NCBI RefSeq assembly: GCF_058153355.1
Contig: NZ_CM177019.1
Direction: 5' to 3' (one strand)
DNA length: 64,000 nucleotides
Positions within the stretch are counted from its first letter, which is position 1. Each line of letters opens with the position of its first letter. The notes under the pieces are model-generated. The model was not told the origin of the DNA and did no database searches. It saw nothing but the letters and a program-made list of their open reading frames with translations. Both the position numbers and the translations under genes were made by a program. Positions 63,216-63,526 of this stretch are shown here, piece after piece.

Positions 63216-63292
63216 CCGGCCCTTTAGCTCAGTTGGTCAGAGCGAGCGACTCATAATCGCCAGGTCGCTGGTTCAAGTCCAGCAAGGGCCAC
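63216..63292 (+). tRNA. phage tRNA with CAU anticodon (Ile2-lysidine or Met)
   Basis: Hand-folded cloverleaf GGCCCTT...AAGGGCC-A-CCA, anticodon loop CTCATAA. Confidence 0.7.
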
Positions 63293-63293
63293 C

Positions 63294-63370
63294 AACCACC
63301 ACTAGCTCATCCGGATAGAGCATCAACCTTCTAAGTTGACGGTGCGAGGTTCGAGTCCTCGGTGGTGGGC
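63294..63370 (+). tRNA. phage tRNA-Arg (UCU)
   Basis: Cloverleaf with T-arm CGAGG-TTCGAGT-CCTCG, anticodon loop CTTCTAA. Confidence 0.7.
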
Positions 63371-63372
63371 CA

Positions 63373-63448
63373 GCGCCGACTTAGCTCAGCAGGCAGAGCA
63401 ACTGACTTGTAATCAGTAGGTCACCAGTTCGATTCCGGTAGTCGGCAC
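63373..63448 (+). tRNA. phage tRNA-Thr (UGU)
   Basis: Cloverleaf GCCGACT...AGTCGGC-A-CCA, anticodon loop CTTGTAA. Confidence 0.65.
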
Positions 63449-63451
63449 CAT

Positions 63452-63526
63452 ATGCGGGCATCGTATAATGGCTATTACCTCAGCCTTCCAAGCTGATGAT
63501 GCGGGTTCGATTCCCGCTGCCCGCTC
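63452..63526 (+). tRNA. phage tRNA-Gly (UCC)
   Basis: Cloverleaf GCGGGCA...TGCCCGC-T-CCA, anticodon loop CTTCCAA; D-arm pairing imperfect. Confidence 0.6.

Follow-up and report, generated by a model that had tools for sequence, protein, structure and literature searches.

A four-tRNA array between the antiterminator and holin genes of a lambda-like prophage is a widespread variant of a known tRNA module

The window analysed here is a stretch of 64,000 nucleotides of contig NZ_CM177019.1 (RefSeq assembly GCF_058153355.1). ARAGORN identified seven tRNA genes in the window, three belonging to the host and four to a prophage. Table 1 gives an overview of the features found in the late region of this prophage. 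The four prophage tRNA genes are separated by spacers of 1, 2 and 3 nt (A, GC and TAT). All of them are full-length matches to the Rfam family RF00005 (56-70 bits, E-values from 1e-10 to 1e-14, gathering score 29), adopt the canonical cloverleaf fold according to both Rfam and ARAGORN, and encode the CCA end. The array thus consists of genuine tRNA genes of a lambda-like prophage. The original prediction, made from the DNA letters, had described four tRNAs with the anticodons CAU, UCU, UGU and UCC, reading AUA, AGA, ACA and GGA and spaced by 1-3 nt, and had suggested a tRNA predictor as a check. ARAGORN called all four genes and the Rfam tRNA model matched each of them, and the description was exact apart from the position of the array (63216-63526), which was 2 nt too low compared to the called genes (63218-63528).

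Table 1 Features of the prophage late region in the window
Feature	Position	Strand	Evidence
ninH homologue	62445-62645	+	PF06322 Phage_NinH, E = 3.6e-26
Antiterminator Q, 126 aa	62638-63018	+	PF06530 Phage_antitermQ, E = 4.2e-54, full-length match
Intrinsic terminator, tR' position	63105-63129	+	fold -18 kcal/mol, z = -3.6
Putative sigma-70-like promoter	63180-63208	+	-35 TTGCAG 63180-63185, 17-nt spacer, -10 TATTAT 63203-63208
tRNA CAU, Ile2 type	63218-63294	+	ARAGORN; RF00005, 70.5 bits
tRNA-Arg(UCU), reads AGA and AGG	63296-63372	+	ARAGORN; RF00005, 56.4 bits
tRNA-Thr(UGU), reads ACA	63375-63450	+	ARAGORN; RF00005, 69.8 bits
tRNA-Gly(UCC), reads GGA	63454-63528	+	ARAGORN; RF00005, 64.9 bits
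Structured non-coding spacer	63529-63819	+	fold z = -4.5 vs shuffled controls
Spacer hairpin 1	63535-63580	+	z = -4.8 (hairpin alone)
Spacer hairpin 2	63588-63660	+	z = -5.0 (hairpin alone)
Weakened terminator	stem-loop 63739-63748, U run 63749-63754	+	3-bp stem, -3.3 kcal/mol
Start of class II (P21 S-type) holin gene	63820-64000	+	PF04971, E = 2.8e-31; continues past the window end

Upstream of the array, the 3' end of the ninH homologue overlaps the start of Q. A relative that is 98.5% identical to the ninH homologue is annotated as 'protein ninH', and a RefSeq homologue of Q is named 'antiterminator Q family protein'. Q is followed by an intrinsic terminator with a G+C-rich stem of 9 bp, a loop of 4 nt and a run of six U residues (AAACCCGCC-UCCG-GGCGGGUUU, then UUU). 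This terminator was missed by the consensus scanner because an A-U extension of the stem takes up part of the T run. Together with the PF06530 match to Q it bears out the claim that the array lies directly behind Q and its terminator. The scanner found no late promoter pR' in 63019-63104; pR' is presumed to lie within these 86 nt between Q and the terminator. In an Stx2 phage a promoter-terminator pair is present at the equivalent position. Q, terminator, tRNA genes and holin gene follow each other in this order on the plus strand, which is the late-region position of tRNA genes in lambdoid phages.

The window ends within the holin gene, and the full homologue of the holin in the related prophage of E. 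coli CFSAN029787 has 71 aa. In that prophage the holin gene is followed by genes for a 209-aa protein, a lysozyme, an Rz-like protein, a ParDE pair, the terminase and lambda-like head and tail proteins. The 209-aa ORF between holin and lysozyme genes (locus coordinates 6941-7570) has no Pfam match, and in the prophage of strain APEC O1 the same slot is occupied by a gene of the YdfR family. The 209-aa ORF may represent cargo inside the lysis cassette.

Between the last tRNA gene and the ATG of the holin gene (63820) lie 291 nt, and the sole ORF of at least 40 aa wholly inside this gap has 46 aa. As no longer ORF is present, the gap does not contain a toxin gene, in line with the earlier statement that about 290 bp without toxin genes separate the array from the holin. 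Arrays directly followed by a holin gene are the rule among the relatives, and missing toxin cargo is the normal state of the module and not peculiar to the window. In the contigs of many relatives ORFs starting with MHHSGVVN were seen 175-190 nt past the Gly gene. A reading of these ORFs as cargo was rejected as spurious; their length varies from 79 to 190 aa and the encoded sequences are rich in Cys and Arg and of low complexity.

The spacer in front of the holin gene is highly structured and contains, in addition to the two hairpins listed in Table 1, a third long hairpin. Phage HK639 has a spacer that is 79% identical to that of the window, located behind a half-decayed Gly gene of which the 3' half is left. 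Hairpins 1 and 2 are kept in HK639 (locus 1500-1730) through changes on both sides of several base pairs. At the position of the weakened terminator, a terminator is annotated in HK639 and a hairpin of -11.5 kcal/mol is present in APEC O1. The stem of only 3 bp is found in the window and in all relatives with an Arg(UCU)-type array, while Lys-type arrays carry GCGGG (the -11.5 kcal/mol form) or GCGG. If the array has an active promoter of its own, its transcripts may run on into the holin gene. In a permissive search of 62950-64000 against Rfam, neither the leader nor the spacer had a credible match.

A putative promoter lies between the terminator and the first tRNA gene. Its -10 element is separated from the tRNA gene by a G+C-rich stretch of 9 nt (TCTGCCTCC). 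The consensus scanner scored 9/12 for a neighbouring register with TTTGCA and an 18-nt spacer. In 126 arrays we found 40 distinct upstream sequences that include several clearly different lineages. TTGCA and TATTAT at a distance of 17 nt are retained in most of these 40 sequences despite divergence of spacer and flanks, and the arrays with upstream TTGCA-N17-TATTAT include that of the Stx2-phage ileZ. The element was also considered as the late promoter itself. This was rejected, since in the Stx2 phage the same element is located downstream of a separate promoter-terminator pair. The array therefore appears to have its own sigma-70-type promoter, in which the G+C-rich stretch after the -10 element resembles that of host tRNA promoters. 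With such a conserved promoter, expression of the arrays may extend to lysogens instead of being confined to induced cells.

To which tRNA families the four genes belong was deduced from comparison with the genes of E. coli K-12 and of related phages. The CAU tRNA is 89.6% identical to K-12 ileX and 96.1% (74/77 positions) to ileZ of Stx2a_F349. TilS distinguishes Ile2 from Met tRNAs by the pairs C4-G69 and C5-G68, and the acceptor arms of the CAU tRNA (GGCCCUU / AAGGGCC) provide both pairs. A gene identical to it is named tRNA-Ile by NCBI's pipeline in RefSeq. Judged by these features it is an Ile2-type tRNA, with a CAU anticodon on an ileX/ileY-like body. The Arg(UCU) tRNA shares only 73% identity with host argU, compared to 83% with argN(UCG) of Stx2 phages and 86% with the Lys(UUU) tRNA of APEC O1. 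It has an unusual body (C1-G72, U15) in common with the latter two and shows A20 and G73, which, like the anticodon UCU, would be expected of an arginine acceptor. The stem differences within this lineage are compensatory (A3-U70 vs G3-C70, A30-U40 vs G30-C40) and thus argue for a lineage of working tRNAs. We found the lineage only in prophage and viral sequences, and a scan of about 100,000 species-representative genomes (one genome per species) did not detect the scaffold. The Thr(UGU) gene corresponds to K-12 thrU except for two changes in the D-loop (U16C and U20C), with an identical anticodon arm, and the Gly(UCC) gene is 100% identical to K-12 glyT.

The two halves of the array have different relatives. 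Similarity to Stx2 phages spans 63201-63372, that is the -10 element and the first two tRNA genes, and ends at the border of the Thr gene. Similarity to the stx phage phi467 (97.7%) starts just before the Thr gene and extends through the Gly gene and the spacer to the holin gene. The Thr-TAT-Gly pair alone, not preceded by the Ile2-Arg pair, is present in phi467, in the LT-IIb prophage SerU and in a prophage of Citrobacter braakii. A scan for the Thr-Gly junction matched C. braakii and one contig filed under Corallococcus, and nothing else. The latter contig (NZ_RAVW01000911.1, 423 bp, coverage 0.67), which bears the enterobacterial prophage Thr-Gly pair, is probably a contaminant in the Corallococcus exercitus assembly.

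The sequence source of the Thr-Gly pair is the host operon thrU-tyrU-glyT-thrT-tufB as found in K-12, with glyT being 100% identical and thrU differing by 2 nt. Between thrU and glyT, K-12 has tyrU and a 116-nt spacer. The array lacks tyrU, the 116-nt spacer and thrT, and its flanks are unrelated to those of the operon. The TAT spacer is the expected remnant of a single deletion that joins the T after thrU to the AT before glyT. According to this, the enterobacterial thrU-tyrU-glyT-thrT operon appears to have been captured, with a subsequent loss of tyrU. The array is clearly mosaic, one pair being of phage lineage and the other from the host thrU-glyT operon, and it would have originated by module shuffling, when an ileZ/argN-type pair was joined to the captured thrU-glyT pair.

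As to its distribution, the whole 701-nt block is present at 99.7% identity in seven complete RefSeq E. coli genomes, where it is annotated as Ile-Arg-Thr-Gly. The block was detected at a coverage of at least 80% in 489 E. coli genomes, mostly as Ile-Lys-Thr-Gly, and the pair of Ile2 and second tRNA occurs in some form in 2249 of the 5426 complete E. coli genomes. In IMG/VR, a pattern scan gave at least 121 matches; among the matches listed, 67 are Ile-Lys(UUU)-Thr-Gly and 37 Ile-Arg(UCU)-Thr-Gly. In about 36-37 independent matches, among the 121 listed, all four tRNA sequences are identical to those of the window. The original prediction had named identical clusters in already characterised phages as a finding that would speak against it. 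This applies by half: the array is annotated in RefSeq and common in IMG/VR, but in deposited phages only the Ile-Lys-Thr-Gly form with 95% identity was found and not the Ile-Arg-Thr-Gly form.

Among the closest known arrays are those of the APEC O1 prophage and of the phages vB_EcoS-689R5, vB_EcoM-606R7 and PhiR47_1. They have Ile-Lys(UUU)-Thr-Gly in the same four slots, with the same spacers, the 291-nt gap and a P21-type holin, and are 95% identical to the window over 600 nt. They differ in the second tRNA, which is a Lys(UUU) tRNA with C33 and U73, in a Thr gene that is 100% thrU, in other Q genes and in an intact terminator in front of the holin gene.

In Stx2 phages (933W type; Stx2a_F349) the tRNA genes are likewise encoded on the late-operon strand, behind Q, late promoter and terminator. 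The proposal that the array occupies the position of ileZ-argN-argO in these phages was therefore confirmed, Stx2a_F349 (AP012530) having the order Q, ileZ(CAU), argN(UCG), argO(UCU), stxAB. Its ileZ is 96% identical to the first tRNA, its argN, with the C1-G72 scaffold, is 83% identical to the second, and TTGCA-N17-TATTAT is shared upstream. Nevertheless, the composition differs, as had been suspected. The second tRNA of the window has the anticodon UCU instead of UCG and thus is not argN, and the following slots hold Thr(UGU) and Gly(UCC) instead of argO and lead to a holin gene instead of stxAB.

In phi467 Thr-TAT-Gly, spacer and holin gene are arranged as in the window, with stxAB upstream of the pair, and SerU contains the Thr-TAT-Gly module, with toxin genes after the lysis genes. 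In SfI, Sf6, ST64T, PS3, P21 and HK639 genes for Asn(GUU) or Thr(UGU) tRNAs are located downstream of Q at the same genome position. The tRNA sets differ from that of the window, and HK639 combines an Asn gene with the decayed Gly gene and shares the spacer hairpins. Our literature search returned nothing specific on tRNA-Thr/tRNA-Gly in lambdoid prophages. The array is a common and already annotated variant of the known post-Q tRNA module and not a new kind of element. The main value of the analysis lies in this clean negative: the cluster is real, and it is an ordinary, widespread prophage module.

The original prediction had also asked how the codon usage of the late genes compares to that of the host. 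The window prophage's own late genes lie beyond the window, and the CFSAN029787 prophage, which is 97-98.5% identical in the overlap, was used in their place. The comparison was made between 42 coding sequences of this prophage and 38 long ORFs from the host part of the window. Ranked by the prophage/host ratio of synonymous fractions among 59 codons, AGG is first, AGA second, AUA fourth, ACA fifth and GGA seventh. The odds ratios of these five codons range from 1.6 to 3.75 (each p ≤ 5e-4), relative to a host baseline limited to about 12,400 codons, taken from ORFs that had been called mechanically. Summed up, the five codons amount to 43 per 1000 prophage codons as opposed to 21.5 per 1000 host codons, an about twofold enrichment of the codons read by the array. 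The same bias is seen in the window's own genes from replication to Q (odds ratios 2.5-4.3). The assignment of rare codons to the first, second and fourth tRNA needs a small correction. The host part of the window contains fewer ACA codons (6.5 per 1000) than GGA codons (8.8 per 1000), so that the Thr codon is of as low usage as the Gly codon.

In K-12 argU, thrU and glyT are present in one copy each, and the AUA reader in two (ileX, ileY). The four prophage genes would add copies of host minor isoacceptors for AUA, AGA/AGG, ACA and GGA. We consider the array to be probably a tRNA-supply module by which the lambdoid prophage serves the translation of phage genes. Given that the codons read by the array are about twofold more frequent in the phage than in the host, additional tRNA should speed up phage translation after induction. 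The sequence analysis establishes the genes, their homologies, the codon bias and the conserved promoter hexamers, whereas transcription, processing and charging of the tRNAs, and any benefit to the phage, are inferred. Two inputs into expression can be envisaged. One would be the array's own conserved sigma-70-type promoter 9 nt upstream, possibly also active in the lysogen, and the other read-through from the late promoter once Q carries RNA polymerase past the terminator. With spacers of 1-3 nt the precursor must be cut apart by RNase P at each 5' end, and the short trailers would be trimmed back to the encoded CCA. The CAU tRNA would require lysidine modification by the host TilS for reading AUA.

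For tRNA genes downstream of Q in SfI, Sf6, ST64T, PS3 and P21 a codon-supply rationale has been proposed, based on SfI, in which ACA accounts for 17.3% in the phage compared to 7.1% in the host (PMC3636060). The codon bias seen here fits this explanation. Nevertheless, the enrichments are moderate (1.5-3.7 fold). Moreover, rare codons ending in A are commonly enriched in horizontally moving DNA, so that a match between tRNAs and codons is partly expected. Many lambdoid phages of similar codon usage, such as SfIV, have no tRNA genes, and the benefit can therefore not be large.

Supply of tRNA may also be directed to the lysogen. Constant expression from the array's own promoter could mainly aid the A+T-rich acquired genes of the lysogen, for instance virulence genes rich in AUA and AGA. 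This form of lysogenic conversion, which we regard as unlikely, would explain why a conserved putative promoter, with a G+C-rich stretch next to it, exists apart from the late promoter and terminator. It would also fit the frequency of the Ile2 and second-tRNA pair (2249 of 5426 complete E. coli genomes) and an ipaH effector pseudogene in the near-identical CFSAN029787 prophage. The array is, however, part of the late operon, the codon bias of the phage itself is enough to explain the match, and virulence genes are not visible within the window. An even lower probability applies to a neutral passenger, which would make the genes leftovers of host capture, unused as tRNAs and kept as crossover points for recombination. 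Homology between phages does break at the edges of the array and at the border of the second and third tRNA, the Thr-Gly pair is mobile on its own, and decayed copies exist, as in FDAARGOS_943 (a 'Val' form with a damaged 3' end) and HK639 (half a Gly gene). This reading is nevertheless very unlikely. Dozens of contigs contain the four sequences without any change, stem substitutions are compensatory, the putative promoter is retained and the anticodons match the codons most enriched in the phage, which together point to selection on function.

A function different from supply would be counter-defence, with the array replacing host tRNAs that are cut by nucleases such as P2 Old and PARIS AriB, as do the tRNAs of T5. 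To our knowledge, no nuclease targets Ile2 or Gly(UCC), and the array's Gly gene equals glyT. In favour of counter-defence, the Ile2 and Arg genes deviate from those of the host, and the array encodes Thr(UGU). P2 Old, which excludes lambda, acts mainly on host tRNA-Thr(UGU) (PMC12445682), and PARIS AriB has it among its prime targets (PMC12409363), which makes the presence of such a gene in a lambdoid phage suggestive. Phage genes for tRNA-Thr(UGU) rescue cells from Old. Protection from Old, however, needed altered anticodon stems, and an extra host tRNA-ThrU gave little or none. The anticodon arm of the array's Thr tRNA is that of the host, including the CUG/CAG motifs with A37, where Old cuts, and U36-A-A-U-C|A41, where AriB cuts. 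The tRNA clusters of T5-type virulent phages also include Thr(UGU), but in T5 the tRNAs are substituted at the sites of cleavage (PMC12409363). In the window neither the Thr nor the Gly gene carries such substitutions relative to the host. As the exact cut sites of P2 Old and PARIS are kept in the Thr gene, plain tRNA supply is favoured over evasion for this array. Counter-defence as an explanation is thus quite improbable, and nuclease evasion appears unlikely for this array, although it may still apply to the Ile2 and Arg genes.

Related arrays show repeated changes of anticodon on a common body. The scaffold of the second tRNA carries UCU in the window, UCG in Stx2 phages and UUU with C33 in its commonest form. 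The thrU scaffold was found as Arg(UCU), with two other changes, in SerU-LTIIb (locus 1095-1170), and in the third slot as Lys(UUU) in two IMG/VR matches among those listed. A switch from Arg(UCU) to Thr(UGU) through a single anticodon mutation has reportedly been achieved experimentally in E. coli. As a tentative idea, prophage arrays could offer a natural setting for switches of tRNA identity through point mutation of the anticodon, with expression in lysogens from the arrays' own promoter and with shifting codon demand or tRNA-cutting defences as the driving force.

The Lys(UUU) form of the second tRNA (APEC O1 locus 3115-3191) accounts for 70 of the 121 IMG/VR matches listed. All copies seen carry U73, and C33 where U33 is near-universal. 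After the anticodon this tRNA reads U36-A-A-G-U-U and thereby lacks U36-A-A-U-C|A41, the site at which host tRNA-Lys is cut by PARIS AriB. It could be either a Lys tRNA that resists the nuclease or one with unusual decoding. In the Thr gene of FDAARGOS_943 (locus 3258-3408) UC replaces GU at positions 42-43, which leaves an anticodon stem of three pairs and removes the CAG motif. Changes of this type are reported to confer resistance to P2 Old. Next to it, the former Gly gene is now a 'Val(UAC)' gene whose 3' end is damaged, and the changes in the two genes may reflect adaptation or simply decay.

Two further observations concern the remainder of the window. In the early region of the prophage, 56798-58393 contains direct repeats, namely two 300-nt copies that are 90% identical and three copies of a 73-nt unit. 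The motif HPFLKIEVVNGKAV is encoded by the repeated unit. Regulator genes of the Rha family lie in the corresponding region of the CFSAN029787 prophage, which is otherwise similar but differs in this stretch from the window, and the repeats may derive from tandem duplication of such a gene. The three host tRNA genes form a Gly(GCC)-Cys(GCA)-Leu(UAA) cluster at 7772-8073, which we take to be glyW-cysT-leuZ. The prophage starts about 40 kb downstream of this cluster and adjoins cmoB.
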